Shown one piece after another: positions 12,630-44,473 of a stretch of DNA of 64,000 bases. Position 1 is the stretch's first letter. Each line of letters begins with the position of its first letter. Below the pieces are notes generated by a model that ran no database searches, had not been told where the DNA came from, and saw only the letters and a program-made list of their open reading frames with translations. Location: positions 4,256 to 68,255 of the forward strand of contig JAQTYZ010000002.1 in the NCBI GenBank assembly GCA_028688055.1. Direction: 5' to 3'. Made by a program: the position numbers and the translations under genes. Source of the DNA: Patescibacteria group bacterium. Its GTDB lineage: Bacteria; Patescibacteriota; Patescibacteriia; Buchananbacterales; UBA6539.

Positions 12630-13336
12630 TGATTTTTGACTAGACGTAAATTATTTTTTACCTCCAATGTCATTTCTCGTATTGTTTTTATTTCAAAATT
12701 TTCTATCAGTAATAATTCATATATTTTTTTCAAATACTCACTTGGCCAAGGACAATATCCTTCATTATCGAGGCCATGTGCTCTCAAAATTAACCAACTA
12801 TTAGCTGGCAGCTGGCTTATTTTTTTCAAGGCCTTTTCTATTGTTAATCTGCCCTCAAATGGGTCAAAAGAAATCAGTTCTAAAAGGTCAATTTTTTCTA
12901 ATGAATTATAAATATATTTACCATCACATAGTCTGATAGAGTCGTAGGGTGGATTGTCTGGAGATTTAATGCCGTAAGGCATAGCCAATGAATAAGGACC
13001 AGGATGAAACTGTTGGATATATTTTAACGATTCAATATAACCGTCTGGGCCATCACTGCTTGGCCCAGCATGGCAGACAGTATGAGAACTTATTTCATGA
13101 CCTAGATTAGACAGCTTCTTCCATTGCTCAAAGTCTCCGTGATCTAAGCCGATATTACATTTGTCATTAATCTTTATAGGATTTGGTTTTAGCCATCCAG
13201 TCACAATATAAAATATTGCTTTATTGGGATAGATAATGTCGTTTACTTTATTGGCGCTATTTATAAGGCCATCATCAAAGGTAAATGACACGTAACGATT
13301 AATTATCTTTTTGGGTTTGTAAAAAAAATTAAACAT
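12626..13336 (-). CDS. polysaccharide deacetylase (CE4/NodB-homology domain)
   Basis: TFDDG and HTVCH motifs. Confidence 0.65.
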   Translation of the reverse strand: MFNFFYKPKKIINRYVSFTFDDGLINSANKVNDIIYPNKAIFYIVTGWLKPNPIKINDKCNIGLDHGDFEQWKKLSNLGHEISSHTVCHAGPSSDGPDGYIESLKYIQQFHPGPYSLAMPYGIKSPDNPPYDSIRLCDGKYIYNSLEKIDLLELISFDPFEGRLTIEKALKKISQLPANSWLILRAHGLDNEGYCPWPSEYLKKIYELLLIENFEIKTIREMTLEVKNNLRLVKNH

Positions 13337-13342
13337 AAGTTA

Positions 13343-14353
13343 TTACAGGATATTTTGCAAGTATTTTAATTGTCTATAAAGTTTAATTTTTGTTCCTACC
13401 AGTAATGAGATGTCACCTTTCAGGAAAAAGATCAATTCTAATGGTAAAAAAAACAGTTCTTTCAAGATAAATACCATATCATAAAATGGCAAATCAACGC
13501 CTAGGTTTCTTTTTAGGGTACATTCAGACAAATAAGATAAATTATACATTTTTACGGATGATTTAATGCTTTTTTGATTATAGCTTCCATTAAATTCTCG
13601 ATGGGTATCTGGAACTCGGTGGTGTTTAATTGATACTTGATCTATGAAGTATGGGAAGTGCGGCCAGAGAGTTTCAATTTGCCGAATCAGATCAGTATCA
13701 TCGTGAGAAAAAATAATTTGCTGGTTGAAGTGGACGTAGTCAAAAATCTTTTTTTTGATTGACAAATTCCCGGCCGCTATTGTTCCTGCAATTGGCTGAT
13801 TAGTGACTAAGTTTTGTTTAAGAACTGTGTCATATATTTGCCCCTGACCTAAAAAGAAACTGCCATTAGCATATTTATGATAAAGGCGACTTAGCCATTC
13901 AGGATCAACTTCACAATCATCATCAATAAAAATTAAGAGTTCTCCGGTAGCCATTTTGATTCCTTTATTCCGGCCAGCGGATATGCTTATTATTTTCTCC
14001 TGAAAAACTTTTAATAATTTATTATTTTGGGCATATTGTTGTAAATATATATAAGTTCCATCATTTGAATTATTATCAATAATAATTATTTCATAAGGTA
14101 AGGTATCAAATTGAAGATGTTCTAGGCTGGCCAAAGCATATTTTTTAAGGGCATTCAGACGATTTCTAGTGGTGATTATAATTGAAATCTTATTAATTTG
14201 ATCTCCAATAATTTCAGTGGTGGTTTTTTTTATTATATCGACGGGTAATGTTTTTTTATTATATTTTTTATTCAATCCCTCATATATTTTAAATGGAAAA
14301 TAATAAATATAATTCTTTATTTTTTTTGGCATCAATTGCAACAGATACTTCAT
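13343..14353 (-). CDS. family 2 glycosyltransferase
   Basis: ISIIITTRNR...IIIDNNSNDGT...IFIDDDC (GT-A fold with DxD). Confidence 0.75.
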   Translation of the reverse strand: MKYLLQLMPKKIKNYIYYFPFKIYEGLNKKYNKKTLPVDIIKKTTTEIIGDQINKISIIITTRNRLNALKKYALASLEHLQFDTLPYEIIIIDNNSNDGTYIYLQQYAQNNKLLKVFQEKIISISAGRNKGIKMATGELLIFIDDDCEVDPEWLSRLYHKYANGSFFLGQGQIYDTVLKQNLVTNQPIAGTIAAGNLSIKKKIFDYVHFNQQIIFSHDDTDLIRQIETLWPHFPYFIDQVSIKHHRVPDTHREFNGSYNQKSIKSSVKMYNLSYLSECTLKRNLGVDLPFYDMVFILKELFFLPLELIFFLKGDISLLVGTKIKLYRQLKYLQNIL

Positions 14354-15369
14354 GATTTTTGGCTTAATTTAAATATTTCTTTGTCTGATATTTTTCTCGT
14401 TGCCTGGATGTTTTTTCTCAACTTCAAAGTCTTTGATAAATTATGTAAATTCCAATAAAAAGCCATGAACGGGATGGGCAAAAATTTAATTCGTTTGATA
14501 AAATAATTTTTGTTTTTGAATAATGGCACTAGCTTGCCATTCTCTATTTTTCTATTTAATAAATATCCGCCAGGATATAGGATAAAATAATCCAATATAA
14601 TAATCGGCAGCGCTTTAACGATATTTTTAAATTCGTAATTTTTTAAAATTGTATAAAGTGAATTTCGACGACAAAGATATATTTTTTTAAACTGATAATT
14701 GCCCCAGGTAGCACTACCTTTATGATAAACTACGGCACTAGGCTCAAAGATAATCTTATAACCCAATAAATTTGCCCGGTAACCCCAATCCAAATCTTCA
14801 AAATATGAATAATAGTTTTCATCTAGTAACCCGACATTTCGAAATGACTCCCTTTTTATTAGTGTGGACCCCCAACAGCTTGCCAAGATATCTTTCTGAA
14901 AATTATTTACCTCCGCTTTGTTCCGATTGAAATTTATATCCAGCCCATAACCAGAAAAAGTAAATCTTCCACCCTGGCTATTGATTATGTTCGGATGATC
15001 ATAAAAGAGCATATTAGAGGCCACGGCTACTATCTTCCCATCAGATTTAATAGCGGTTACAAGATTTTTCAGCCAAGCCTTATCAACCCTAATATCATTA
15101 TTTAAAATAGCTATATAATCAGGATTATATTTATCCAAAGAATAATTAATCCCATAATTTACCACCTTAGCAAAGCCCAAATTATTTTTTAAAGCTACAA
15201 CCTCTATTGCGGGAAATTTATTTTTTATAAAAACAATACTACCATCTGTCGAACAATCATCTATTACTATAATTTTTATATTGTGATAAGTTTGGCTTAT
15301 TAAAGAAGACAGGCATTCTTGAAGATGGCCTTCCCCATTAAAATTAACTACTAGAACAATAGTTTCCAT
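14350..15369 (-). CDS. family 2 glycosyltransferase
   Basis: VLVVNFN...VIDDCSTDGS, GT2 signature. 4-bp overlap with the downstream GT2. Confidence 0.75.
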   Translation of the reverse strand: METIVLVVNFNGEGHLQECLSSLISQTYHNIKIIVIDDCSTDGSIVFIKNKFPAIEVVALKNNLGFAKVVNYGINYSLDKYNPDYIAILNNDIRVDKAWLKNLVTAIKSDGKIVAVASNMLFYDHPNIINSQGGRFTFSGYGLDINFNRNKAEVNNFQKDILASCWGSTLIKRESFRNVGLLDENYYSYFEDLDWGYRANLLGYKIIFEPSAVVYHKGSATWGNYQFKKIYLCRRNSLYTILKNYEFKNIVKALPIIILDYFILYPGGYLLNRKIENGKLVPLFKNKNYFIKRIKFLPIPFMAFYWNLHNLSKTLKLRKNIQATRKISDKEIFKLSQKS

Positions 15370-15371
15370 AG

Positions 15372-16106
15372 TTAGATATCATAATTTTTTACCATGCCAT
15401 CTAATCTTTTTATTTCAAAACCGACGCGTTGGCATTTATTGCCACAATTGGGACAAGACTCTCCTTCCAAAATCGTACCTACATCTCCAGTGCGAAATCC
15501 CTCTGGATAATGATTGGAATAAAATATCAATTCATTATTTAGCGAATCGACCTCAAACTTGCCTGATTCGGTAAAAACATGGTAACCACATGACAAATCA
15601 TCACAAGTTGTCCAGGCGACTCTCGCTTCAGTGAAACCATAGGTAGCATAAATTATTGTTCCTGGGCAGAGCATCCTTGATTCTTGAATAAATTTATTGT
15701 TGATGCCATTAGCTCCGATAATTAATTTCATCCGACTGAGATCGACATTATTTTCTTTGGCTAGGTTTAATGTCTTAAGAATGTAACCGGGCAGGCCGGC
15801 AATCATTTCCGGTGGAAATGATTTCATGATATTTATGGTTTTTTCTGATGTCACATGTTTGCCGCCACCGGTGTTTATTGTTAGAGAGCCGGTTATTTCT
15901 CCATACATGGCACCTAAATAATACCCCAGGTGAGGGGCAAAAGGTAATAAATTATAATAAACTCCGGCTTGCTTGTGGATCATCGAAAATCTAGAAATAC
16001 ATTTTTCCATGTTGATTTTGTCTTCCATGGTGTAAATTATCGGCTTAGCGCTTTTACCGGATGTTCCCGAACTGAAGAGAAGGAGAATGGGAGTGTTATT
16101 TTTCAT
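15372..16106 (-). CDS. adenylate-forming enzyme fragment (PaaK/CapK-like), N-terminally truncated
   Basis: The AMP-binding P-loop SSGTSGKSAKP lies at residue 12 rather than ~90-100, and there is no room upstream. C-terminal CPNCGNKC. Confidence 0.45.
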   Translation of the reverse strand: MKNNTPILLLFSSGTSGKSAKPIIYTMEDKINMEKCISRFSMIHKQAGVYYNLLPFAPHLGYYLGAMYGEITGSLTINTGGGKHVTSEKTINIMKSFPPEMIAGLPGYILKTLNLAKENNVDLSRMKLIIGANGINNKFIQESRMLCPGTIIYATYGFTEARVAWTTCDDLSCGYHVFTESGKFEVDSLNNELIFYSNHYPEGFRTGDVGTILEGESCPNCGNKCQRVGFEIKRLDGMVKNYDI

Positions 16107-16113
16107 ATGTTTC

Positions 16114-16863
16114 TTATTTATGAAATACTAATAATAAATATTTTCGGTTATCATCGGCGTATATTTTTTTAGAAAATGACCAATTTTTTAAGTATTTTTT
16201 ACTATTTAAATCTTTGGCTAGATTAATTGCAAAATCAGTTGTAGGAATGATATTTTTTGTTAGATCCTGCTTTTCAATAAGTACATATTTATTTTGACTT
16301 AATATTTTTATTAATTTAACTTCAGTATTCTTTAGTGGTACACCCTCCTTATCAAATTCATCAAGAATTATTAGACTACTATGTTCTTTTAAGCAACTTA
16401 CTATATTTGATATAGCTAATTCAGTATTTATAAAATATTGGTATGATTCTATTAAAACCGCAAGATCAAATTTTTTATCAATTTTTAAATTTTCTGCCGA
16501 AGTAAGAAGAAATGATACTTTGGGATTATGTTTTTTACCATACTTGATAAAATTTTGGTCAGGCACCACACAAAGACAATGGTAATTTTTATTCATAAAT
16601 TGTCTGGCCATACTGCCGATTCCACCGCCAACATCAATAATATCTTTTGTATCTACTGGAATTTTATCAATTACTAGTTTTGATAGATTTTCTTGAGCGT
16701 CAATTATGCTATCATTTTTGTTTTTGTAATAACCATAATGTATATGTTTCCAACCAAAAACTTTTAAAAAAGTAAAATGGGCCGACAAAAAATCCTTCTC
16801 CTTAATAATTTTAATTCTGAGATATATTATTTTTATTTTATAAATTATTTTTGAATAACACAT
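16114..16863 (-). CDS. class I SAM-dependent methyltransferase
   Basis: DVGGGIGSMA motif I and an acidic motif II. Confidence 0.65.
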   Translation of the reverse strand: MCYSKIIYKIKIIYLRIKIIKEKDFLSAHFTFLKVFGWKHIHYGYYKNKNDSIIDAQENLSKLVIDKIPVDTKDIIDVGGGIGSMARQFMNKNYHCLCVVPDQNFIKYGKKHNPKVSFLLTSAENLKIDKKFDLAVLIESYQYFINTELAISNIVSCLKEHSSLIILDEFDKEGVPLKNTEVKLIKILSQNKYVLIEKQDLTKNIIPTTDFAINLAKDLNSKKYLKNWSFSKKIYADDNRKYLLLVFHK

Positions 16864-16866
16864 ATT

Positions 16867-18969
16867 TTATATTAATAAACTCCAATCGGCATCAATACAT
16901 GTTAAATATAAATCGTCAGTTTCAATTGGGTAGCAAGAGTCATTATAAGTAAAATAAATCTCCCTTCCTTTATAATAGTTTCTCAAATGTAAAATTTTCA
17001 ATAGCCTCATATCAGTTGTAACTAATCTTAATTTTCTCACCCCCAATTTTTGGCAAAAATATTCAATGGCTAAAAATATACTAGCATTAATATATTCATT
17101 TAAAATCAGTATATCGGAAATAACAGCATTAGTTTCATTTTTCTCTAATGAAAAATAACCGATTATTTTGCTGCTTTTTTTAACAATAAATAAGTCCATT
17201 TTTTTTGGGGAATCTATTATTCTCCATTTTATAAATTCCCAATTTCGAACTACCCCAACATTAATTTCAGTTTTTTTACGTTCCCAAAGGCTGTTTATTT
17301 CTTTTTCACCTTCATCGGCACTAACTTTTTCGATAGTTAATTCACTCTGAATGATTTTCTCATTAAAGTTTAATATTTTAGGCCAACATAACCAGTATAA
17401 TCTTTTTTCAAGGAGATTAGATTTGATGGTTTTATTTGCTTGATGGGCGCCAGCAGCTGGAACCACTCTGCCATATACAGAATTCATTTTTTTATTGACA
17501 AACCCCCATGGCAAAAAATTACCTTGATCAATAAGCATACTAAAACAACTTTTAATAAACCCCTGATCTCGATATTGTTTTTCTATCCCCACCTCAGCAA
17601 TTTGATGAATAATTTGCTCCTTTGAATAGTATTTGATTTTGTGGCGTAAAACAGCAAATTGTCCGATTATTTCTTTTGTGCTATTCTCAGCAACAAGTAT
17701 CATTGAGCCCATTGGACAGTTCTTATATTTCCAAATCCATTTAGCATAATCCGTGGGATCAAAAATTTTATTGATAATATTGATCAGCCCCGCTTCATCG
17801 CCAGCTTGGTATGGCCTTATTTTGTAAAGGAGTTTTTCTAATTGTTGTTGGTTGTCAGCCATTTTTTTTGTGGCGAATGGCAACTGTTTTAATTTTTTAT
17901 AAAGCCATGGCGAATATTTTTTCAAAAAAATTCCAACGAGTCCCAACAACCTATCGATCAAAATTTTACTATTAATCCACATCGAAGCAGGCTGTTTGAA
18001 TTTCAATAAAAAATAATATAAATCCGGAGATAGTTTTTTTAGAGCAAGACCCCACCAACCAATAAATCGATCAATAAGCCATTTTGGGCAGGAGAATATT
18101 ATTTGCCTAATTAAATGATGATGATATTTTTTCAATTCTTCGTCACTCCAAACAAATTGAGCTGATGGACGGTTATTTAAATTAATTTGGTCAGCTTTGC
18201 TTAAGTTATCTTTCCATGTATTGTAAATTGATTGGCAATAATAAATTGGTTTTTGATAAGAAATAAAATGCACCATAATTGATTTTAGCTTTTTTGGTTC
18301 TATGTAATAATTCTTTAATTGATTATAATTCAGACAGTAGATAGGTGATAAATTATCCCACTCGTTGGCAAAATATAAACTCAGGATAAATTCGTCAATG
18401 TTACCAATATGATTTTGGTATTTAATTAGGAGAGATTTTAAATCATCAAATGTTTTGTGTGTTATGATTTCAGTATTGATAACAAGGAAGTTACAGCAAG
18501 GTATTGGCAAGTTGAGATTATATTTTTTCAGATTAGTTTGTTGGAATTTATTATTAAGCTCGTAAAATCTTAAAAAATGTTTCAATTTAACCTGCCAGAA
18601 GAAATACCGAATACCCGTTGCGGCTATTTTATTTGTGTCTAATAAATTATCTAATGAGGCAGTTACTATCAAGTCAGCATCCAGAAAAATTATTTTATCC
18701 CATTGCTTGAATTCTGATGTAAATAAATAGAGTTTACTCAATATGACTGCCGGCCAGCGCCCAACTAATTTTTCTGCCAATGGTTCGCATTTTTTGATTA
18801 AGATGCCTTTGTCTCTAAACCATTTCAAATCTTCTTCCGGCACTTCATGAGCTAACAGCATATAATCGCCTTGCCAACCAGAATTAAAATAAACACTGCT
18901 AAATAATTGCTTAGCAAAGTCTAAATATTTTTTATCGGCTAGAGTGACAAGAAGATTTTTTTTATTCAT
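16867..18969 (-). CDS. GT8-like nucleotide-sugar transferase fused to a C-terminal GNAT-like domain (700 aa)
   Basis: N-terminal LVTLADKKY...IIFLDADLIV (GT8/glycogenin-like DxD). Middle amphipathic repeats. C-terminal VGIEKQYRDQGFIKS is GNAT motif-A-like. Confidence 0.5.
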   Translation of the reverse strand: MNKKNLLVTLADKKYLDFAKQLFSSVYFNSGWQGDYMLLAHEVPEEDLKWFRDKGILIKKCEPLAEKLVGRWPAVILSKLYLFTSEFKQWDKIIFLDADLIVTASLDNLLDTNKIAATGIRYFFWQVKLKHFLRFYELNNKFQQTNLKKYNLNLPIPCCNFLVINTEIITHKTFDDLKSLLIKYQNHIGNIDEFILSLYFANEWDNLSPIYCLNYNQLKNYYIEPKKLKSIMVHFISYQKPIYYCQSIYNTWKDNLSKADQINLNNRPSAQFVWSDEELKKYHHHLIRQIIFSCPKWLIDRFIGWWGLALKKLSPDLYYFLLKFKQPASMWINSKILIDRLLGLVGIFLKKYSPWLYKKLKQLPFATKKMADNQQQLEKLLYKIRPYQAGDEAGLINIINKIFDPTDYAKWIWKYKNCPMGSMILVAENSTKEIIGQFAVLRHKIKYYSKEQIIHQIAEVGIEKQYRDQGFIKSCFSMLIDQGNFLPWGFVNKKMNSVYGRVVPAAGAHQANKTIKSNLLEKRLYWLCWPKILNFNEKIIQSELTIEKVSADEGEKEINSLWERKKTEINVGVVRNWEFIKWRIIDSPKKMDLFIVKKSSKIIGYFSLEKNETNAVISDILILNEYINASIFLAIEYFCQKLGVRKLRLVTTDMRLLKILHLRNYYKGREIYFTYNDSCYPIETDDLYLTCIDADWSLLI

Positions 18970-18970
18970 T
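18668..18970 (-). repeat. 303-bp perfect direct repeat, copy A (5' end of the GT8 paralog)
   Basis: Identical to 19668..19970 at an offset of exactly 1000 bp. Confidence 0.9.
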
Positions 18971-19969
18971 TTTTATTAATTTTTTTAAAAAGTAGTATGA
19001 TTTTGGATAATCTTTTTTAAGCCAAATACCAGTTAATCCGATTAAGAAGTCGAGTGACTCAATCAGCCGATATAACATCGCATAAGGAATAAAAAATACT
19101 CTTCGCATTTTTAACAGTAATTCGTATTTTTTTATTTCAAAATGACCCCAAATCTTGGTTGGCGGCAGGCGCAAGCTTAAATTAATTTCATCAGCACGAT
19201 CAAGGTTGTAGCGCCATATCTTATAAAAATAGGGGTGATAATCAATCGGTTTCTGGCAATTGAAAAAATTAATAATGATTGCCCTCGTTTTTTGTGGTTT
19301 TAGACAATTATATTTGATTAAGCTGAAAACATTAAGACAATAGAGCGGTGATATTATTTGTAGTTGTTTAATAAAATATAAAGTTAAGATCATTTCTTCA
19401 AGTGCTCCAAAAATAGTTTGATATTTATCTGCCAATTCTTTCAACCCAGTAAATGTATTTTTTTTTATAATAGTGGTGGAAAAGACGAAAACTCCACCAC
19501 TTAACATGAGGGAATTCAAGTCGTAAAGTTTTTCGCCTTCGCGCCTTATTTTTTTGTCAGCCTTATAAAAAAGATGTTTGAGACGGGATTTTTGCAGATA
19601 CAAGCTGTAGTTTGTAAAGCCAGCTATATTTTTAACTTCAAGTAAGTCATCTAGTGAAGCACAAACAATCAAGTCAGCATCCAGAAAAATTATTTTATCC
19701 CATTGCTTGAATTCTGATGTAAATAAATAGAGTTTACTCAATATGACTGCCGGCCAGCGCCCAACTAATTTTTCTGCCAATGGTTCGCATTTTTTGATTA
19801 AGATGCCTTTGTCTCTAAACCATTTCAAATCTTCTTCCGGCACTTCATGAGCTAACAGCATATAATCGCCTTGCCAACCAGAATTAAAATAAACACTGCT
19901 AAATAATTGCTTAGCAAAGTCTAAATATTTTTTATCGGCTAGAGTGACAAGAAGATTTTTTTTATTCAT
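18962..19969 (-). CDS. GT8-like nucleotide-sugar transferase; paralog of the upstream gene without the GNAT part
   Basis: The first ~100 aa are identical to the 700-aa protein. The same DxD motif is present (FLDADLIV). Confidence 0.5.
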   Translation of the reverse strand: MNKKNLLVTLADKKYLDFAKQLFSSVYFNSGWQGDYMLLAHEVPEEDLKWFRDKGILIKKCEPLAEKLVGRWPAVILSKLYLFTSEFKQWDKIIFLDADLIVCASLDDLLEVKNIAGFTNYSLYLQKSRLKHLFYKADKKIRREGEKLYDLNSLMLSGGVFVFSTTIIKKNTFTGLKELADKYQTIFGALEEMILTLYFIKQLQIISPLYCLNVFSLIKYNCLKPQKTRAIIINFFNCQKPIDYHPYFYKIWRYNLDRADEINLSLRLPPTKIWGHFEIKKYELLLKMRRVFFIPYAMLYRLIESLDFLIGLTGIWLKKDYPKSYYFLKKLIKNE

Positions 19970-31495: not shown

Positions 31496-32563
31496 TTGTC
31501 AACAAAAAAACTTGGCGGAGTTTTAACCGCCCTGGTAACGCCATTTGATGGCAAAGGCGGGGTTGATAGGGAAGCCCTGCGTCGGCTGATTGATTTTCAG
31601 CTTAAGCAAGGCGTTGATGGTCTGGTGCCAACCGGTACCACTGGCGAATCGCCAACGCTGACGTGGCCAGAACAGCTACAAGTTATCCAACTCACGCGGC
31701 AAAGCGCCGGCAACACCTTTGTCTTGGCCGGCACCGGTAGCAACTCCACCAAAGAAGCTTTGGACCACTCGCGCAAGGCCGTCGAGCTTGGCGTTGATGG
31801 AGTATTATCACTTGACGCGTACTATAACAAACCGGCTTCGTGGCAATTACTAGCTCTTCATCACTTGCCAATCGCGACTGCCGTCCACCAAGTAGCGCCG
31901 GGTATTCGTTATGTCCCGTACATTATTCCCGGGCGTACCGGCTGCCAACTGTTACCGCCGGACTTAGCCAAGCTGGCCGAATACTCGCCCAATGTCACGG
32001 CCGTCAAGGAAGCCACCGGTAACCTTGAAAATATGGTCCTAACCCGTCAACTGCTTGGGCTAGACTTTTTGGTTCTGAGCGGCGACGACAGCCTAACCGC
32101 AGCGATGATGACTTCAATGATGATCCGCGCTAATGGCGTAATCTCGGTTATGAGCAACCTCATTCCTGGCATCATGGTCAAAATGATCCGACTGCTTAGC
32201 GGGGCAAATGTTCTAGCGGGTGGTATTCTAGCCAAAACACTCGAGCCACTATTTAGCTGCGTGGGCATTGCCGCGCCGCGATCATTCGACGTCAATGGCC
32301 AAAGTTACACGGTAACAGACAAGTTCCCCAATCCGTGTGCGGTCAAAACCATGATGGCCGGTCTGGGTATGTGCTCGATTCACATGCGCCAACCGCTGGG
32401 ACTAATGACACCAGCAGCCGTCCTCATTTGCCGCGATACCCTGCGACAGCTTTGGCAGACGCTGCCCGAAGCGCTGACGCCGATCAACGATCACTTCGGT
32501 GTCGACGTGGAGGCGCGCCTTCACGACAATGCCATTTGGAAAAGTCTCGGCGCCAACATCTAG
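31496..32563 (+). CDS. DapA/NAL-family class I aldolase (dihydrodipicolinate synthase-like) with a C-terminal extension
   Basis: TPF...G, GTTGE and AVKEATGN (Schiff-base lysine) motifs. TTG start with a GGAGGAG SD. GC-rich. Confidence 0.7.
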   Translation: MSTKKLGGVLTALVTPFDGKGGVDREALRRLIDFQLKQGVDGLVPTGTTGESPTLTWPEQLQVIQLTRQSAGNTFVLAGTGSNSTKEALDHSRKAVELGVDGVLSLDAYYNKPASWQLLALHHLPIATAVHQVAPGIRYVPYIIPGRTGCQLLPPDLAKLAEYSPNVTAVKEATGNLENMVLTRQLLGLDFLVLSGDDSLTAAMMTSMMIRANGVISVMSNLIPGIMVKMIRLLSGANVLAGGILAKTLEPLFSCVGIAAPRSFDVNGQSYTVTDKFPNPCAVKTMMAGLGMCSIHMRQPLGLMTPAAVLICRDTLRQLWQTLPEALTPINDHFGVDVEARLHDNAIWKSLGANI

Positions 32564-32651: not shown

Positions 32652-35375
32652 ATGTCCAAAACTGCCGAAAAATTTGTCGTGATCGATGGCAACGCTTTAA
32701 TTCATCGCGCCTGGCACGCCTTACCGCCCACGATGACGACCAAAGACGGTACGATGACCAATGCCGTTTATGGCTTCACCACGATTTTGCTTAAAGTTTT
32801 AAAAGACTTGAAGCCCGATTATCTCGCGGTCACTTTTGACCTCAAGGGTCCAACTTTTCGCCACCGACAATACGCCGCCTACAAGGCCACGCGCGTCAAA
32901 CAAGCTGATGAACTTTACGAACAATTTCCGCTGGTGAAAAAAGTGGTCCGCGCTTTTAATATCCCAATTTTTGAACTAGCGGGTTATGAAGCGGACGACG
33001 TTATTGCCACCTTAGTTCGTCATCCCGACGTTGAAAAAATAAAATCACTGATTGTCAGTGGTGACCTCGATACCCTGCAACTCGTTGACGACAACACCGA
33101 AGTTTATACCATGCAAAAAGGCATTGCCGATACTTTTATTTATAATACCGCTGAAGTTAAGCGCCGCTTTGACGGCCTGACGCCGGCCCAAATGGTTGAC
33201 TACAAAGCTTTGCGTGGCGATCCGTCAGACAATATTCCGGGGGTTAAAGGTATTGGCGAAAAGGGCGCGATTAATTTGCTTAAAGAATTTAAAACGCTGG
33301 AGAATCTTTACCAAAATATTAACTCAAAAAAAATCTCGGAGCGCAATCGCCAACTACTAATCGAACACCAACCAGAGGCCACCATGTCCAAACAGCTAGC
33401 CCAAATGGACAATCACGCTCCGATCAAATTTTCCTTAGACGAGACTAAAATTAAACCTTACGATTTAGACCAAGTTGTCACGTTATTTCGCGAACTTGAA
33501 TTCAAATCCCTAATCGCCAAGTTGCCCAAGGAAACGCCTGACCGCGAACAACAGGGCGTCTTTCAATTTGGCCCGGCTGAACGTAAAATTAAAGCTACTG
33601 ATGTCGACTACCAACTCATTAAAAACAATGCCGACTTCAAAAAATTTCTGGCTGAACTGAAAAAACAAAAAATCTTTGTTTTAGATACGGAGACTTCCAG
33701 CTTAGATCAATTTTCCGCCGAACTGCTCGGCATCAGTTTTTGTTGGCAGCACGGCCAGGCTTTTTATTTACCGGCCAAACCGGAATGGCTGGAGCAAATC
33801 AGAACAATTTTGGAAAACGACCAGCTTAAAAAAGCCGGACACAATATCAAGTTTGACCTTGAAGCCATCAACACGGCCGGCGTGGAAGTTAAAGGCGTTT
33901 GGTTTGACACGATGATTGCTTCCTATTTGGTTAATCCCGGTAGCCGCCAACATAACCTCGACGGCGTAGTATTTTCTGAACTTGGCTATCAAATGCAGCC
34001 CATTGAAGACTTAATTGGTAAAGGCAAAAATCAAATTTCCCTCAAAGCTGTTGACGTCCAAAGAGTCAGTGACTACTCCTGTGAAGACGCCGATTTTACT
34101 TGGCGCTTAATTAAACCGCTCACCAAAGAACTGGTTGAAAAAAATAATTTAGGGCTACTGGAAAAAATTGAAGTGCCCCTAATTTCGGTTTTGGCCCAAA
34201 TGGAAACCACTGGTATTTTAATTGACACCAAATTTCTTAACCGTATGGCCAAACAAGTTGGGGTTGAGCTTAACGACCTCGAAGACACTATTTATAAAAT
34301 TTCTAAAACGACTTTTAACATCGCTTCACCGTTACAATTAAAAGAGGTGCTGTTTACTAAATTAAAAATTTCAACGCAAGGGTTGGGCCGTACCAAAACC
34401 GGCGTTTCCACCGCCGCCGGTGAACTGGAAAAACTTAAAGGCCAACACGAAATTATTGATCACCTCATCAGGTTCCGCGAGTTAGCAAAATTAAAATCAA
34501 CTTACTTGGACGCCTTGCCAAAATTAGTTGATCAAACCGGTCGCATTCATACCAGCTACAACCAAACCGTGGCCGCGACCGGTCGCCTATCTTCATCGGA
34601 CCCAAATTTACAAAATATTCCCATTCGCACTGAGCTGGGACAAAAAATCCGTCAGGCTTTTATTGCGCCCAACGGCTACAGTATTTTATCAGCCGACTAT
34701 TCTCAAATTGAGTTACGCATTATCGCGTCACTGGCCAATGATAAAAAAATGATTGCCAGTTTTGAAAAAGGTGAGGATATCCATTCACGCACCGCGTCGG
34801 AAATCAACAACGTGCCGCTGGACCAAGTCACCAAAGAAATGCGGTACGCCGCCAAAGCTGTCAACTTTGGTATTATCTACGGCCAAGGCGCTTGGGGCTT
34901 AGCCGAAGGCACGGGGATTACCAGACAAAAAGCGATGGATTTTATCGACCGCTATTTTGAGATTCACAGTGCCATTAAAAAATATTTAGACGGCGTTAAA
35001 GATTTAGCGCGCGCCAATGGTTACGTTGAAACTTTTTTCGGCCGTCGACGCTATTTGCCTGAAATCAATTCTTCAATGCAACCAGTACGCGCCGCGGCGG
35101 AGCGCGCGGCCATCAATCACCCAATTCAGGGAACAGCCGCGGACTTGATTAAATTAGCGATGATTGAAATTTATCAAGACTTACCAAAATTTTCGCCCGC
35201 CACCAAAATGTTGCTGCAAGTTCACGACGAATTGGTGTTTGAAGTACCCAATAATGAAATAACCAAGGTGGCAAAATTTGTCGCGGACTATATGGAAAAA
35301 ATTTATAAGCTACGAGCGCCGGTTGAAACCCACGTTTCCGTTGGTCCAAATTGGGGCGAACTAAAGCCGCTTTAA
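32652..35375 (+). CDS. polA: DNA polymerase I
   Basis: 5'-3' exonuclease N-terminus, 3'-5' exonuclease domain, pol motifs RRAAKAVNFGIIYG and QVHDELVFE. Confidence 0.95.
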   Translation: MSKTAEKFVVIDGNALIHRAWHALPPTMTTKDGTMTNAVYGFTTILLKVLKDLKPDYLAVTFDLKGPTFRHRQYAAYKATRVKQADELYEQFPLVKKVVRAFNIPIFELAGYEADDVIATLVRHPDVEKIKSLIVSGDLDTLQLVDDNTEVYTMQKGIADTFIYNTAEVKRRFDGLTPAQMVDYKALRGDPSDNIPGVKGIGEKGAINLLKEFKTLENLYQNINSKKISERNRQLLIEHQPEATMSKQLAQMDNHAPIKFSLDETKIKPYDLDQVVTLFRELEFKSLIAKLPKETPDREQQGVFQFGPAERKIKATDVDYQLIKNNADFKKFLAELKKQKIFVLDTETSSLDQFSAELLGISFCWQHGQAFYLPAKPEWLEQIRTILENDQLKKAGHNIKFDLEAINTAGVEVKGVWFDTMIASYLVNPGSRQHNLDGVVFSELGYQMQPIEDLIGKGKNQISLKAVDVQRVSDYSCEDADFTWRLIKPLTKELVEKNNLGLLEKIEVPLISVLAQMETTGILIDTKFLNRMAKQVGVELNDLEDTIYKISKTTFNIASPLQLKEVLFTKLKISTQGLGRTKTGVSTAAGELEKLKGQHEIIDHLIRFRELAKLKSTYLDALPKLVDQTGRIHTSYNQTVAATGRLSSSDPNLQNIPIRTELGQKIRQAFIAPNGYSILSADYSQIELRIIASLANDKKMIASFEKGEDIHSRTASEINNVPLDQVTKEMRYAAKAVNFGIIYGQGAWGLAEGTGITRQKAMDFIDRYFEIHSAIKKYLDGVKDLARANGYVETFFGRRRYLPEINSSMQPVRAAAERAAINHPIQGTAADLIKLAMIEIYQDLPKFSPATKMLLQVHDELVFEVPNNEITKVAKFVADYMEKIYKLRAPVETHVSVGPNWGELKPL

Positions 35376-35417
35376 GCTTAAGCCGCAATAATCAAGCCAT
35401 TTAGTGGCTTTTTATTA

Positions 35418-35446
35418 TTGACAAAAATAGCAAAATCTGCTATTAT
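35418..35446 (+). promoter_or_regulatory. perfect consensus sigma70 promoter
   Basis: TTGACA, 17 nt spacer, TATTAT. Confidence 0.6.
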
Positions 35447-35649
35447 TTAAAATCGCCCTTTAATAACCAATCAATTTGCTAGTTGCCATTTGGGCCGAAA
35501 ATCAGAAATCATTTTAAGGCATAATCTTGTTAGATCAGCCGTTTTTCGGTCGAAATGGCAACTAGCTGTACTAGTGGCCAGCTTTGATTTGTGGCTTCAT
35601 AGTGAAGACACAACCTTCCCGAATAATAGTAGGGGAAAAGGAGCATCTC
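35447..35649 (+). promoter_or_regulatory. ~200-nt structured leader or possible ncRNA with a long imperfect inverted repeat
   Basis: gctagttgccatttgggccgaaaa ... ttttcggtcgaaatggcaactagc forms a ~24-bp stem. The segment is followed by the SD (aggggaaaaggag) and a GTG start. Confidence 0.35.
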
Positions 35650-36942
35650 GTGAGCGCCAAAAAAATCCACACAGTAGTCACCCGTTACGCGAACTCAAGT
35701 TTGGAGGGCCCCGCCCTGGCAGCCCTGTTGGCCCAAGGTCGAAACATCCCCAACGCGCTTGGTTTCTCCAAGAGCGTGGAGTTTCAGTTTAAGAGCACGG
35801 CGAGACTGAGAATCGCTTGGCCGCCACCAACCGCCGCGGAGTTCAAACGCATTCGCGACAGGCAACGCGCCAGCGGCACGATCTTGTTTAACGTCGGCGA
35901 CGAATACGGCTGCGGTCATTACGACCACCACGGCGACCCGACTACCGCTTCACTGACCTCGCTAGACCGCCTCTGGGTCAACAATGGAGTCGTCGAAGAA
36001 GGCTATTCACACCTAGTTGATCCGTTGTTGGCGATTTCCGGCAACGATGCCTTCGCCAACGCCTTGTCACCCGACAAGGACAACTTGCGTCGACTGATGC
36101 AGGCAATGGCCGTAAGCCACCCGCAAGACTGGAACTTCCAGCATGGGTGGTTGGACATGGCCATCCGAGGCGTCTTTGCCCAACACAAGGCGACTGGCGA
36201 GCTCAATAACGCCTTCTCAATGGCTGGCATCCTACAGGGACTCGCGGTTGATCACCCTACGGTTGTCAACGACCTCGAGTCGATCTGGCAGACTGGCGTT
36301 GAAGCGCTGTTAAAAGATCGGAAGACTGCCAGGGAGGATGTCAAGCAGGCGATGAAACGCGGGCAATTCGCCTGGATTTCTCATCCCGCGCTGTCACCGA
36401 AGCTGATCTGTCGTAACGGCCAAACCTGGTCCTACGGCGGTAAGCTGAAGGTAGTCTGGGTTCGCTCCGATGCCGTCAACGCAGCCAAGGTCTGCCGCGA
36501 CAAGTGGAACGGGGGTGACGCGGACATTGCCATCATCCTCCGCAGCACCGGACACTACCAGGTATTCCAACGCATTACGTTGGAGCATGCCCTGCCGGAA
36601 ATCGGAGCCAAGGAACCCGGGAAAATATTGGCCAAATACAAGCTAACGCTCGGGCCGCTCGCTCGGGCCTTACGGCTCGCCGAAGCCAACCTGGTCACCC
36701 CACGGCGTATCTTGATTCAAGACATGGACTGGACCAACGACGCGGCCGTTTACGACACCGACGGGAACATCGTTCCATGGTATCTCGGCTGCAATCAAAC
36801 GTTGCTGGTTGGCAACACACTGTCGTCGCCGGACATGCCGCCAAGTGTGATCCGCCACGATAAGGTCGTCGACCTGATCTGTGATAATCTCCCCAATTGT
36901 GGGGTAATCACTCAGGACAATGAGACCGACGACTGGTCGTAA
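35650..36942 (+). CDS. hypothetical protein of ~430 aa, GC-rich orphan
   Basis: A GTG start with a good SD is favoured over the track's upstream ATG. Contains GCGHYDHHGD. No family recognised. Confidence 0.5.
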   Translation: MSAKKIHTVVTRYANSSLEGPALAALLAQGRNIPNALGFSKSVEFQFKSTARLRIAWPPPTAAEFKRIRDRQRASGTILFNVGDEYGCGHYDHHGDPTTASLTSLDRLWVNNGVVEEGYSHLVDPLLAISGNDAFANALSPDKDNLRRLMQAMAVSHPQDWNFQHGWLDMAIRGVFAQHKATGELNNAFSMAGILQGLAVDHPTVVNDLESIWQTGVEALLKDRKTAREDVKQAMKRGQFAWISHPALSPKLICRNGQTWSYGGKLKVVWVRSDAVNAAKVCRDKWNGGDADIAIILRSTGHYQVFQRITLEHALPEIGAKEPGKILAKYKLTLGPLARALRLAEANLVTPRRILIQDMDWTNDAAVYDTDGNIVPWYLGCNQTLLVGNTLSSPDMPPSVIRHDKVVDLICDNLPNCGVITQDNETDDWS

Positions 36943-37041
36943 AGCCAGAACTAGTACACCTCATCGGGCGCCCGAATCCAAAAAAAAGGATTTTCGGGCG
37001 CTCTTCATTTTATCCAAATTTTTTGCTAAGCTAAGTCCACT

Positions 37042-38031
37042 ATGATTTTCTTCCTCGCTGGCCCTGACACCTTTCGCTCGCGTCGCAAGCTAGCGGAAAT
37101 TCGTCAAAAATTTATTACTGAGATTGACCAGTCGGCCATTAATATTGAAGCTCTTAACGGCGAGCTACTGGAAGTTAACACTTTTTCCAACGCGGTTTTT
37201 ACGCCGCCGTTTTTGGCCAAGAAACGGCTGATTATTGTTGAAAATTTATTAGGCAAAAATAAAACGGCCAAAACCGAAACGGAAATTTTTGAAATTATCA
37301 ATGGCCATAAGCTAGACGATGTCATCATTGTTTTTTGGGAAGGGGAGCTGGCCGGTAAAAAAATTACCAAAAAAAAATCTACCCGCAAACATAGCGGACA
37401 ACTACTGGCCAGACTTAAACAAGAAAAATACGCCATTGACTTCCCGCTGCTTAATTCAGCGGCGGTCGTTAAATTCGCGAGTGCTGAATTTGCTCGAAAA
37501 AAAGTGGCCATTGAGGCGGCGGCCATCAAACTCTTAACCGATCTAACCGGCAATGACTTGTGGCAATTAAATTCAGAGATTGAAAAACTAACCGCCTTTG
37601 CTCAAGGCAAATCAATTACCGCCGCTATGGTCAGTGAACTGGTTTTAACCAAACTTGATGACGATATTTTTAAATTAACCGATGCCATTGCCCAACAACA
37701 GAAACCACTGGCCATCAAATTGATTTCGGATCAGCTACAAGCCGGCACCATGCCGACTGAACTGCTGGCCAAAATTACCTGGCAATTTCGTAATTTACTA
37801 TTGGTCCGAGGCTTTATTGAAGCCAACGGCGGCGGTTATCCGGCCAGCCGCGTCGCTTATCAATTAGGCCTACATCCCTTTGTCTTAAGTAAAACATCAC
37901 AGCAGGTCAAAAACTTTTCCTTGGCCGACTTAAAAAATAAGTACCAAAACCTACTGGCCATTGACCACAAAATCAAAACAAGCCAAGCTGACCCTGAGGT
38001 TTTACTTGACTTGCTAGTGATAAAAAACTAA
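37042..38031 (+). CDS. holA: DNA polymerase III delta subunit
   Basis: N-terminus MIFFLAGPDTF...KLAEI is like HolA. Conserved holA-rpsT neighbourhood. Confidence 0.6.
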   Translation: MIFFLAGPDTFRSRRKLAEIRQKFITEIDQSAINIEALNGELLEVNTFSNAVFTPPFLAKKRLIIVENLLGKNKTAKTETEIFEIINGHKLDDVIIVFWEGELAGKKITKKKSTRKHSGQLLARLKQEKYAIDFPLLNSAAVVKFASAEFARKKVAIEAAAIKLLTDLTGNDLWQLNSEIEKLTAFAQGKSITAAMVSELVLTKLDDDIFKLTDAIAQQQKPLAIKLISDQLQAGTMPTELLAKITWQFRNLLLVRGFIEANGGGYPASRVAYQLGLHPFVLSKTSQQVKNFSLADLKNKYQNLLAIDHKIKTSQADPEVLLDLLVIKN

Positions 38032-41704: not shown

Positions 41705-43066
41705 ATGGAGGAACAAAAAATTTGGCAAGCGGCACTTGGTGAACTCGAGCTAACTTTAAGTCGAGCTAACTTTACGACCTGGTTTAAAAACACCTTCATT
41801 ACCGAACGAACGGAAGAAATGGTAATTATTGCTGTACCCAACACTTTTACCAAAGCCTGGCTCGAAAAAAAATACCATTCGGCCATTTTGAGGGCCTTAC
41901 AAAAAATTACCAGCAACAAAATAAAATCAATCGTTTACCGAGTTGAAACAGTTTTAAAAATCCAGGAAGAGGTCGTGCTCGAAACTGCCGAAGCCCAGCC
42001 CCAGCTGTCACGGCCCGAGCCTGTCCCGTCAGTCGCGGCTAATGAATTTGGAATCAACCCGCGCTATCGCTTTGACAACTATGTTATTGGCAAGGGTAAT
42101 GAACTCGCTCAAGCGGCTAGTATCGCCGTCACCCAAAAACCAGGTAACGTTTATAACCCGTTATTCATTTATGGCGGCGTTGGCCTTGGTAAAACCCACT
42201 TAATGCAAGCCGTTGGCAACGAAATTTTAAAATTATGGCCGGGCAAAAAAGTTTTATATGTCTCCTGCGAAAAATTTACCAATGACTTTATTAAATCAAT
42301 CTCTTCCAACCGAGCGGACCGTTTTAAAGACACTTATCGCTCCGTTGATGTTTTACTCATTGATGACATTCAATTTTTAGCTGGCAAAGAGGGTACTCAA
42401 GAAGCCTTTTTCCACACCTTTAATGATCTCCACCAAGCCAATAAACAGGTAGTCATCACTTCGGACCGGCCGCCCAAGGCGATCCCGGCCCTGGAAAGCC
42501 GCCTAGAGTCTCGCTTTGAATGGGGGATGATTGCTGACATTTCCAGTCCTGACTTGGAAACCCGGGCCGCCATTTTAAAAACTAAATGCGCCGAAAAAGG
42601 CTATCGACTAAGTGACGAGGTTATCACTTATATTGCCACGAATATTCAAAATAATGTTCGCGAGCTAGAGGGCGCCCTCAATAAAGTAATGGCCTACAAC
42701 CAACTAAATGGCACGGAGCCAAACCTTGAAAACGTAAAAAAAATCATTGGTTCGCTAGCCGCTGGGATTCGTAAAAAATCAATTACCCCAAAACAAATCA
42801 TTAATATTGTGGCCGAATTTTATGATATTGCACTTGATGACCTACTGGGCAGTTGCCGCAAAAAAAACCTTGCGCTACCTAGGCAAATTGTGATGTACCT
42901 AATGCGCGAGGAGCTTAAAAGTTCTTACCCTTCAATTGGTTTAGAGATTGGTAAGCGCGACCACACTACCGCCATGCACGCTCACGTAAAAATTTCCAAC
43001 TGCATTGATGACGATGAAAAAATTAACCAGGATATTAAATTAATTAAAGAAAAACTTTACAACTAA
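41705..43066 (+). CDS. dnaA: chromosomal replication initiator DnaA
   Basis: N-terminus WQAALGELELTLSRANFTTWF. AAA+ GGVGLGKTHL. C-terminal DnaA-box binding domain. Confidence 0.95.
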   Translation: MEEQKIWQAALGELELTLSRANFTTWFKNTFITERTEEMVIIAVPNTFTKAWLEKKYHSAILRALQKITSNKIKSIVYRVETVLKIQEEVVLETAEAQPQLSRPEPVPSVAANEFGINPRYRFDNYVIGKGNELAQAASIAVTQKPGNVYNPLFIYGGVGLGKTHLMQAVGNEILKLWPGKKVLYVSCEKFTNDFIKSISSNRADRFKDTYRSVDVLLIDDIQFLAGKEGTQEAFFHTFNDLHQANKQVVITSDRPPKAIPALESRLESRFEWGMIADISSPDLETRAAILKTKCAEKGYRLSDEVITYIATNIQNNVRELEGALNKVMAYNQLNGTEPNLENVKKIIGSLAAGIRKKSITPKQIINIVAEFYDIALDDLLGSCRKKNLALPRQIVMYLMREELKSSYPSIGLEIGKRDHTTAMHAHVKISNCIDDDEKINQDIKLIKEKLYN

Positions 43067-43324
43067 CTGGGGACACTTTGTTAATAATAAGTTGTTTTTT
43101 TAGGACAACTCATGGGACAACTCATGGGAAAAGCTCCGACCAAAAAGTTAATAAAAAAATGACCAAAAAAAACAGTCCTTTTTGTACCACCCCCATTCAC
43201 ACCTTTCAACAATTTAATTAACAGCTGTTTATAAAAAAATTAGCTAACTAAAGCAAATAAAAAACGTTATCCCCTCTATCCACACCCTTATTAATACTAT
43301 TAATATATAAATATATATAAATTT
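43067..43324. other. candidate oriC in the dnaA-dnaN intergenic region
   Basis: cTATCCACAc DnaA-box-like site at ~43276. A ggacaactcatg tandem. A 40-nt AT-only tract immediately before dnaN, a possible DUE. Confidence 0.4.
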
Positions 43325-44473
43325 ATGAAAATCTCCTGCACCCAAGAAAATCTCAACCAAGGACTTTTCGTTGTTAGCCATCTTGCATCTAAAAATAGTG
43401 CCTTACCAATTCTTAATAATATTTTAATTAAAGCTCAAGAAAATAGTATTAAGTTGTCGGCCACTAATTTAGAAATTGGAGTTACTTGTGAAATTAGGGG
43501 TAAAGTTGAAATGGAGGGAGATTTTACGGTGCAATCTAAGCTACTAGCTGATTATGTAAATTTATTACCAAAAGAAAGAATTGATTTACTGGTCACCGAT
43601 CAGGATGGTCAAAATCCATTACTTAACATTGAGTGTAAAAATTATTCAACAAAAATAAACGGTCAGGGGGCTACGGAGTTTCCGCTAATTCCGCAAATTA
43701 GTCGCGTTCATTCATATTCCGTTGATAGTCAAGCGTTAAGGCAGGCAATTAGTCAGGTTATCTTTGCCGTTTCCATTAGTGAAACTAGACCGGAAATCAA
43801 CGGCGTTATGTTTAGTCTATCCCCAAGTGAATTAATTTTGGCGGCAACCGACGGTTACCGGTTAGCGGAAAAAACTATTAAACTAGACGGTAAATCAAAA
43901 GGAGGAGACCAACAGGTGATTGTACCAACTAGAACCCTTCAGGAATTACAACGCATTTTGGGAAGTTTTAAAGATCCCGCCGCGATTTCTGATTTGAAAA
44001 ATATTGATATCTATCTCGCCGAGAATCAAGTCTTATTTAGTTTTGGTGGGATCGAATTAATTTCGCGACTAGTGGAGGGGCAGTATCCCGATTATCGCCA
44101 AATAATCCCGCAACAATCAACAACTAAAATAGTTTTGAGTACCGCTGATCTTATTAGTGCCGCTAAGACGGCCAGCCTTTTTGCCAGAAGTGGTATTTAT
44201 GATATAAATTTGAGTTTTTCATCAACCAAAAAAGAAGCAACTGTTGGGGCAATTAATAACCAATTAGGAGAAAATGAGTCAACATTAAGTGCGGATATTT
44301 CCGGGAGTGATAATGATATTGTGGTTAATTATCGCTACTTATTGGATGCTTTACAAAATATTAATTCTGACCAAGTTGAAATAAAATTAATCGACAGCGG
44401 CAGTCCTTGTGCGCTTCGTCCCGCTGGAGCGAGTAGTGACTATATTTATATTATTATGCCAATCCGTCGCTAA
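43325..44473 (+). CDS. dnaN: DNA polymerase III beta sliding clamp
   Basis: MKISCTQENLNQGLFVVSHLASKNSALPILNNILIKAQE. Confidence 0.9.
   Translation: MKISCTQENLNQGLFVVSHLASKNSALPILNNILIKAQENSIKLSATNLEIGVTCEIRGKVEMEGDFTVQSKLLADYVNLLPKERIDLLVTDQDGQNPLLNIECKNYSTKINGQGATEFPLIPQISRVHSYSVDSQALRQAISQVIFAVSISETRPEINGVMFSLSPSELILAATDGYRLAEKTIKLDGKSKGGDQQVIVPTRTLQELQRILGSFKDPAAISDLKNIDIYLAENQVLFSFGGIELISRLVEGQYPDYRQIIPQQSTTKIVLSTADLISAAKTASLFARSGIYDINLSFSSTKKEATVGAINNQLGENESTLSADISGSDNDIVVNYRYLLDALQNINSDQVEIKLIDSGSPCALRPAGASSDYIYIIMPIRR

Follow-up and report, generated by a model that had tools for sequence, protein, structure and literature searches.

Introduction

Among the textbook examples of structured bacterial leaders are those of the Escherichia coli genes pnp and rnc, which are processed by RNase III and serve autoregulation, and the translational operators of the ribosomal-protein messages. 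A leader that may be compared with both is described here for a Patescibacteria group bacterium (assembly GCA_028688055.1), in which a stretch of 64,000 nucleotides (nt) of the contig JAQTYZ010000002.1, positions 4,256 to 68,255, hereafter called the window, encodes on its forward strand a protein of 430 amino acids (aa), designated X, between the replication genes polA and holA. Two further described systems bear on the locus: the strands AGUA and GAA are the canonical sequence of the sarcin-ricin (bulged-G) motif (PMC1865062), and MYG1 is a 3'-5' RNA exonuclease with the DHH motif (PMC6582341).

The 5' untranslated region (5' UTR) of X is read here as a new lineage-specific, cis-acting regulatory leader composed of two separable modules. 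A protein probably binds the leader, and RNase III may cut it; the mechanism is one that we infer, and the probability of the whole reading we put at about 0.5. Judged from the comparison of related loci, the leader is a real, conserved and structured RNA of an undescribed type, which precedes a lineage-specific gene and corresponds to no known riboswitch.

Structure and Conservation of the Long Leader Hairpin

The first module is a long hairpin at positions 35478-35566 of the forward strand, delimited by folding, inverted-repeat search and covariation. Its two 24-nt arms (35478-35501 and 35543-35566) are separated by 41 nt and show 92% complementarity, in agreement with the repeat of ~24 base pairs (bp) and ~40-nt spacing that an earlier, sequence-only reading of the locus had pointed out, and they stand at the top of the inverted-repeat list for the 64-kb window. 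The main helix, P1, consists in the window of 14 bp, a G.G mismatch and 9 bp, and encloses an asymmetric inner loop, UCAGAAAUCAUUUUAA (35502-35517), an apical hairpin, P2 (35518-35540), and a U5 tract (35542-35546), all on the forward strand. The fold of the 206-nt leader has an energy of -65.9 kcal/mol, with z = -5.2 against dinucleotide shuffles.

For the comparison, 12 distinct X loci were counted, the window included, the contigs encoding X having been retrieved for 11 of the 31 remote relatives of the protein. Between the window and the locus L001, the promoter is 97% and the long hairpin 92% identical, against 42-58% in the unconstrained spacer, and the synonymous sites of polA, X and holA are saturated (proportion of synonymous differences, pS, ~0.72); because the promoter and the hairpin were kept while the synonymous sites became saturated, the constraint on the leader is far above neutral. 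Both elements also occur in L002, whose X protein is 37% identical, and in L008, a Patescibacteria metagenome-assembled genome (MAG) of GTDB that was found by pattern scan. The pattern, GCCGAAAATCAGAAA-N(20-50)-TTTT(T)CGG, was run once each over genome contigs and metagenome contigs, with L008 as the sole genuine match, the 4 other genome matches and all 17 metagenome matches being chance hits in unrelated GC-rich or coding sequence.

Across these four loci (X proteins 37-56% identical), P1 comprises 23-26 bp with one mismatch. In their alignment (A6), standard pairs fill 95.8% of the cells and five pairs are changed on both sides, as in GCUAGUUGCC/GGCAACUAGC, GCUAGCACC/GGUGCUAGC and UAACUAACACC/GGUGUUAGUUA; the covariation score was reached by 0 of 500 shuffles, and the register-shifted controls were 27-54% paired. 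The structural conservation across homologous loci, on which the sequence-only reading had staked its view of the leader, is present, with compensatory changes. One G.U pair is fixed in P1 of all four loci, and in each of the four the fold of the sense strand is 5-13 kcal/mol more stable than that of the antisense strand; both observations argue for P1 being an RNA helix of the forward strand and against a DNA palindrome. The basal half of P1 covaries, and the top nine pairs, GGCCGAAAA/UUUUCGGUC, with the fixed G.U among them, are invariant, as is the start, UCAGAAAU, of the one-sided inner loop, the length of which ranges over 16-19 nt (16 nt in the window and L008, 18 nt in L002). The invariance of the helix top and of the inner-loop start points to a sequence-specific recognition beyond structure alone.

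P2 covaries as well (GGC..GCC, GGUU..AACC, CUGAU..AUCAG, with U5 next to it) and is conserved together with U5 in the four loci, being a weak, AU-rich stem that was not called by the terminator scan. To judge by its letters, the 3' half of P2 with U5 looks like a weak intrinsic terminator, and in the distant locus L029 this half and its U-run (UUAGAUCAG..UUUUU) are met again, in a middle hairpin that is terminator-like. P2 with the U-run may be an older core, of which P1 would be the elaboration in a sub-clade. The middle hairpins are terminator-like in L028 and L029, and the U-run is absent from those of L030, L032 and L036. A covariance model of the hairpin recovered only the four training copies and no others from the window and the remaining X loci, and the pattern search allowing 3 mismatches found the window to have just one copy of the long hairpin.

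By eye, the leaders of L003, L028, L029, L030, L032, L035 and L036, which belong outside the sub-clade with the long hairpin, have in common a 5' hairpin, for instance GCAACC..GUUGC or UUCAGC..GCUGA, behind which comes a CU-rich element, GUUCUUU or CUCUUU. In the window, L001 and L002, a comparable stretch rich in C and U (UCGCCCUUU, UUGUUCCUU) was seen, again by eye, ahead of the long hairpin.

Start-Proximal Elements of the Leader

The second module adjoins the ribosome-binding site (RBS) and lies at 35618-35635 of the forward strand, where it reads CCC-GAA-UAAU-AGUA-GGGG, a C-G stem standing beside AGUA/GAA. In its general form, CCC-GAA-N(3-17)-AGUA-GGGG, the module sits 10-20 nt before the start codon and abuts the Shine-Dalgarno sequence (SD), which in the window is AAGGAG at 35638-35643, 6 nt before the GTG start. 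The module occurs once in the whole window and was found in 8 of the 12 distinct X loci (the window, L001, L002, L003, L028 as a variant, L030, L032 and L036), once in each and just 5' of X, with X proteins down to ~30% identical. In L001 and L030, a short extension helix is formed between GAA and AGUA, as an internal-loop motif predicts. L008 has no RBS module, and its downstream open reading frame (ORF) is a different one; because L008 carries the long hairpin without the RBS module, the two leader modules are separable. Between them, folding places a second leader hairpin, UGUGGCUUCA-UAG-UGAAGACACA (35590-35612, forward strand), whose position is kept in L001, L002 and L008 with a differing sequence.

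The unpaired probability of the SD was no lower in the native leaders than in 100 dinucleotide shuffles at 10 of 11 loci, and was often higher, so that a simple sequestration of the SD was rejected as a general mechanism. A leader peptide was likewise rejected: the ATG ORF in the 3' arm has 10 codons in the window, is extended to 28 in L001 and has no counterpart in L002. An alternative terminator, formed by the 3' arm with the downstream CUAGUGGCC, is plausible in the window, L001 and L002 and absent in L008, and was rejected as a conserved element.

Protein X and Its Family

The coding sequence (CDS) of X extends from the GTG start at 35650 to 36942 on the forward strand; the SD, the start codon, the 430-aa ORF and its GCGHYDHHGD motif all lie where the sequence-only reading had placed them. 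A protein identical to X has already been deposited, as a hypothetical protein from a MAG labelled Patescibacteria group bacterium. Among 5.8 billion proteins, one exceeds 50% identity to X (P0002, 56%), and the exhaustive HMMER scan of 1.84 billion cluster representatives gave 31 remote relatives at 25-37% identity, to which the profile search of the 5.8-billion-protein set added no further relatives. X has no family in Pfam, PHROGs, NCBIfam, PADLOC or the PDB sequences, whether searched as the single protein or as the 24-member alignment and profile. The description of X as an orphan of no recognisable family is thus right with respect to the databases, but it passes over the remote relatives, which make up a small family fixed at the polA-X-holA position. 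The protein belongs to no common housekeeping family, and its gene is of atypical GC content. The ratio dN/dS between the window and L001 is 0.027 for polA, 0.064 for holA and 0.19 for X, the last value showing that X truly encodes a protein and that the purifying selection on it is relaxed.

The GCGHYDHHGD motif corresponds to residues 87-96 (35908-35937). In the family alignment, E19, F80, D92, H94, N132, D133, R147, R283 and L341 are invariant, and N81, G95, R342 and E345 nearly so. The AlphaFold2 model of X, obtained with the family alignment, has a predicted local distance difference test score (pLDDT) of 92.5 and a predicted template modelling score (pTM) of 0.88. By Foldseek against the PDB, the best matches of the full-length model are of the DHH family, namely PAP phosphatase (8a8k), 6mtz, PPX1 (2qb6) and the RecJ-like 8ioo, with E-values from 2.5e-4 (probability 0.97) to 2.5e-2 and with template modelling (TM) scores of only 0.18-0.29; against the BFVD viral models, every named match with E <1e-3 is a DHH-family phosphoesterase or exopolyphosphatase (best E = 1.2e-6, TMt up to 0.57). 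DHH motif III is kept as the invariant D92-x-H94, which is DHH in the window and DQH in most members, and the invariant N132-D133 may be the counterpart of motif IV. The segment FNVG..YDHHG is a putative look-alike of the MYG1/UPF0160 signature. On the strength of the model, X resembles the DHH/DHHA1 proteins in overall architecture, with the D-x-H, an assignment weak enough that it has not been filed as a member; the modelled fold suggests a role that is nucleotide or oligonucleotide phosphoesterase-like, or nucleic-acid-binding. Low-complexity C-terminal tails rich in Arg, Gly, Gln and Asp are present in P0004, P0005, P0006, P0009 and P0013 (alignment A2, columns ~650-742) and not in the window protein. 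By their composition, these tails hint at nucleic-acid binding in the family.

Transcription Unit and Gene Order

The leader is preceded on the forward strand by a sigma-70-type promoter (35418-35446), with the -35 hexamer TTGACA at 35418-35423, a 17-nt spacer and the -10 hexamer TATTAT at 35441-35446, the spacer ending in TGc, which provides an extended -10 TG at 35438-35439. Hexamers and spacing are as they had been read from the sequence, but the promoter then called a perfect consensus matches 11 of 12 consensus positions, with 5 of 6 in the -10 hexamer. Promoter-like matches with at most one mismatch were found twice, compared with ~0.8 expected per 64 kb, and the match by itself is within chance expectation. 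The promoter is taken as real because it is conserved in all related loci, TTGAC(A/T)-17-TAnnnT being present in 11 of the 11 leaders with enough upstream sequence. The start of transcription is predicted near 35453.

The terminator of X on the forward strand (36966-37011) was recognised by RNAfold of the X-holA spacer as a 14-bp GC-rich hairpin (36966-37003) followed by UUCAUUUU; an equivalent strong hairpin with a U-run is found in L001, L002, L030 and L033, and a promoter and a terminator of its own are present for the X unit in all loci. The X unit is best read as monocistronic, made up of promoter, ~197-nt 5' UTR, CDS and own terminator, and as passed on vertically, within a clade of Patescibacteria, at its place between polA and holA.

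The upstream neighbour, polA (DNA polymerase I; 32652-35375, forward strand; Pfam DNA_pol_A plus the 5'-3' and 3'-5' exonuclease domains), is conserved and 89% identical in amino acids to its orthologue in L001. It is closed by an intrinsic terminator found by the terminator scan (35394-35417, forward strand; hairpin 35394-35410, then a T-run), for which L001, L002 and L008 have an equivalent hairpin and T-run with altered stem bases. The conserved downstream neighbour is holA (DNA polymerase III delta; 37042-38031, forward strand; Pfam DNA_pol3_delta and DNA_pol3_delta_C), which likewise follows X in L001, L002, L029, L030, L033/34 and L035. The order polA, X, holA, rpsT (on the opposite strand), bactofilin and DAGK was observed on every contig with enough flank, down to 24% protein identity. 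It follows from this constancy of the polA-X-holA order that X is a vertically inherited, clade-restricted and fast-evolving gene and not a mobile insertion.

In L001, dnaA and dnaN lie ~5 kb beyond, and in the window dnaA lies at 41705-43066; the ORF at the dnaN position of the window (43325-44473, within the region 41705-44473) was named by synteny with L001. The cumulative GC skew has its minimum near 43-44 kb of the window, which suggests a replication origin near the X locus. Elsewhere in the window, a DHDPS-family gene (31496-32563, forward strand), at 54.5% GC the second-highest of the window, is located between an SMC-like gene and polA; it is missing from the syntenic L001, where SMC directly adjoins polA, and may be a separate acquisition. 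The region 11658-19969, with 26-35% GC, encodes glycosyltransferases of families 2 and 8, a polysaccharide deacetylase, a methyltransferase and an AMP-binding fragment, and resembles a surface-polysaccharide island. A single ORF of 2445 aa occupies 1498-8835 of the forward strand, giant proteins of such a kind being common in genomes of the candidate phyla radiation (CPR).

Base Composition of the Coding Sequence and the Locus L008

The GC content of X, which by eye had seemed to exceed that of the neighbouring genes, is 57.5%, with 71% at third codon positions (GC3), against 41% for the window, and is the highest among the 42 long ORFs (z = 2.8 for GC and 3.4 for GC3). The excess affects all three codon positions, and the step up and down coincides with the start and stop codons of X, the leader and the terminator having 32-44% GC. 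Among the related loci, X has 57-59% GC (GC3 67-72%) between flanks of 36-50% in L001, L002, L028, L029 and L030, and 50-54% between flanks of 34-40% in L003, L031, L032, L035 and L036, while L033/34, the most distant member, has 38% with flanks of 37% and no excess. With the synonymous sites saturated, the excess can have persisted only through active maintenance. Recent horizontal transfer was rejected as its cause, given the saturation, the confinement of the shift to the CDS and the presence of the excess in most X loci; candidate causes are selection at the mRNA level, or a gene conversion biased towards GC and linked to allele replacement through the conserved flanks.

In L008 (DATDWV010000017.1, 3132-3670), a different ORF, Y, likewise rich in GC, stands behind the polA terminator, the promoter and the long hairpin; it is partial, the contig ending after 112 codons, and has 57.7% GC. 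For ORF Y no match to the X profile, no homologues and no family were found. An X-like domain may lie downstream of its sequenced part.

Proposed Mechanism and Alternative Explanations

The invariant top of P1 with the inner loop, the S-turn hairpin next to the SD, or both would be recognised by a factor acting in trans; a protein is the most economical assumption, and X itself may be that protein. Bound beside the SD, the factor would block the loading of the 30S subunit in the fashion of a translational operator, and the two-turn duplex of P1 could serve as a substrate of RNase III, by which the stability of the mRNA would be tied to the leader. The leader keeps the SD open, which fits an operator that needs a bound trans-acting factor to repress or to activate, and P1, with its 14 + 9 bp in the window and 23-26 bp elsewhere, has the length of an RNase III substrate (a nearly uninterrupted RNA duplex of at least ~20 bp).

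Several points weigh against this reading. There are only four independent examples of the long hairpin, two of them close relatives, so the covariation statistics are thin. In L008 the promoter and the long hairpin precede another ORF, so the long hairpin is not tied to the function of X. The module loci apart from L001 and L030 have loops of 3-4 nt with a helix on one side only, which makes a true sarcin-ricin fold uncertain. The start site, the termination within the leader and its processing are predictions, the regulator is putative with no candidate named, and the idea of autoregulation is drawn by analogy, as with the E. coli pnp and rnc leaders. As regards X, its DHH resemblance is weak, with TM-scores of 0.23-0.57; its N-terminal 236 residues modelled alone (pLDDT 88.5) gave no significant match in the PDB (best E = 0.44); neither X nor the 24 members have a Pfam match to DHH, DHHA1 or UPF0160, and the profile has none to PDB sequences; and DHH motif I (DxD) is absent after strand 1, where only E19 is invariant, with N81 at the position of motif II.

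The sequence-only reading had offered a riboswitch, an attenuator or a small RNA (sRNA), and of this the structured and conserved leader has stood, while none of the three classes is supported. As a small-molecule riboswitch, the leader would have its aptamer in the inner loop and the helix top, with P2 and U5 as a terminator platform, and would perhaps sense a nucleotide-type substrate of X. The 5' UTR position, the invariant unpaired nucleotides, the conserved terminator-like P2 and U5, whose 3' half UUAGAUCAG with the U-run is common to the middle hairpin of L029, and the possibly phosphoesterase-like downstream protein would suit such a switch, but cmscan of 35300-35750 against Rfam at E up to 10 gave only chance miRNA and sRNA matches far below the gathering score, which nothing in the window reached. 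Moreover, the near-perfect 23-bp rod has one one-sided loop and lacks a multi-helix junction, and inspection by eye revealed no pseudoknot partner that is conserved; an antiterminator pairing both conserved and mutually exclusive was not found, the alternative pairing seen by eye being absent in L008, where the hairpin precedes a different gene; and the U-run is missing from the middle hairpins of L030, L032 and L036. A riboswitch is thus considered unlikely. For an attenuator, P1 and P2 are nested and not exclusive, with no conserved antiterminator pairing. A little less likely again is an independent trans-acting sRNA of ~95 nt that ends at P2 and U5 and pairs with its targets through the seed AAAAUCAGAAAUCA, the X mRNA being only an incidental read-through product. 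Its canonical layout is at hand in the strong conserved promoter, the conserved single-stranded A-rich segment and the hairpin with U5, and in L008 the module is kept whatever gene follows. However, the 3' arm of P1 lies past the putative terminator and yet covaries with the 5' arm, hence selection acts on the read-through RNA and the leader is not only an sRNA; besides, the weak AU-rich stem of P2 was passed over by the terminator scan, and no other promoter-like site for X lies between the hairpin and the start codon, save a 9/12 match inside the hairpin.

The fact that different GC-rich ORFs, X and, in L008, Y, stand behind the same element leads to two further readings. By one of them, which we hold to be improbable, the polA-proximal promoter with the long hairpin would be a conserved expression slot near the origin for unrelated fast-evolving genes (mostly X, and Y in L008), the CDS being held at ~57% GC (GC3 ~70%) in genomes of 36-42% GC by a locus-specific force; this could be an mRNA selection tied to the control by the leader, or GC-biased gene conversion via frequent allele or cassette replacement through the leader. 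By the other, very improbable, the element would act as DNA, namely as a palindromic operator, a cruciform, a recombination site or a mobile remnant, such as one like a miniature inverted-repeat transposable element (MITE) or attC, that marks a cassette slot by polA. An inverted repeat bound by a dimeric DNA-binding protein would covary equally, but the fixed G.U and the further U.G pairs are A.C mismatches on the opposite strand, in each of the four loci it is the sense strand that folds better, and the element is situated on the downstream side of the promoter, in a single copy in the window and all loci, with no integrase or transposase nearby; the 41-nt spacing with the conserved loop start is unlike an operator, and the arms misfit the R''/R' consensus of attC, by eye. 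Hardly credible, finally, is a recent foreign GC-rich island behind an unrelated host sequence without special function. The contrast of 57.5% with 41% GC, the top rank among the 42 ORFs and the lack of a family annotation would suggest it. The polA-X-holA position, on the contrary, is constant in every locus with enough flank, at identities down to 24%, and the GC excess persists despite the saturated synonymous sites; the composition shift ends at the borders of the CDS, with the promoter, the leader and the terminator AT-rich and conserved. The relatives of X with examined contexts are all in low-GC genomes, no GC-rich donor lineage having been seen, and no mobility genes adjoin X. The cis-acting leader recognised by a trans-acting factor is the reading retained here.

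Significance of the Locus

The regulatory RNAs and the lineage-specific genes of the CPR bacteria are almost unexplored because these bacteria are uncultivated. The locus offers a constrained and covarying leader outside Rfam with two compact modules, together with a confident structural model of a clade-restricted family encoded between two replication genes, ~5 kb upstream of dnaA. X is also a clean case of a single CDS that is far richer in GC than its genome despite saturation, for which ordinary horizontal transfer is no explanation. If the leader proves to be a switch responsive to a protein or a ligand, it would represent a new class of regulatory RNA, and if not, the set of promoter, UTR and terminator would still be useful for CPR biology; should the expression slot be real, it would couple a regulatory RNA to the local base composition in a way so far undescribed for CPR bacteria. 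The narrow taxonomic range and the four hairpin examples limit the interest of the locus, while its conservation is strong and its composition puzzle unusual.

Comparison with Known Systems

Like the autoregulatory pnp and rnc leaders, that of X carries a long, near-perfect hairpin of about two turns in a monocistronic 5' UTR, between a strong promoter and the RBS, and the gene product may act on nucleic acids. It differs in having no sequence or Rfam relationship to them, in that X is neither PNPase nor RNase III, and in the invariant sequence of its helix top and one-sided loop, which is not a requirement of RNase III, the cleavage of the X leader being only predicted. With the translational operators, such as those of the ribosomal proteins and of threonyl-tRNA synthetase (ThrRS) and the coat-protein hairpin of phage MS2, the leader has in common a small conserved hairpin with a non-Watson-Crick module directly 5' of an accessible SD; unlike them, it bears the sarcin-ricin AGUA/GAA and no described operator sequence, is confined to one gene family in one CPR clade, and has a putative binder.

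With regard to the sarcin-ricin or loop E motif itself, 8 of the 12 loci have the exact AGUA and GAA strands opposite one another, with C-G pairs adjoining, whereas the mRNA-leader setting, the loop of mostly 3-4 nt and the single flanking helix, with a second helix only in L001 and L030, set the module apart from the motif, which is recognised here by its letters. The protein, in turn, shares with the DHH/DHHA1 phosphoesterases (NrnA, RecJ-like, PAP phosphatase, PPX1) a two-domain build with a long linker helix and an invariant D-x-H after the FNVG strand that resembles motif III, and it departs from them by the absence of motif I, the Asn81 in place of the motif II Asp, the low TM-scores and the lack of a Pfam or PDB sequence match.

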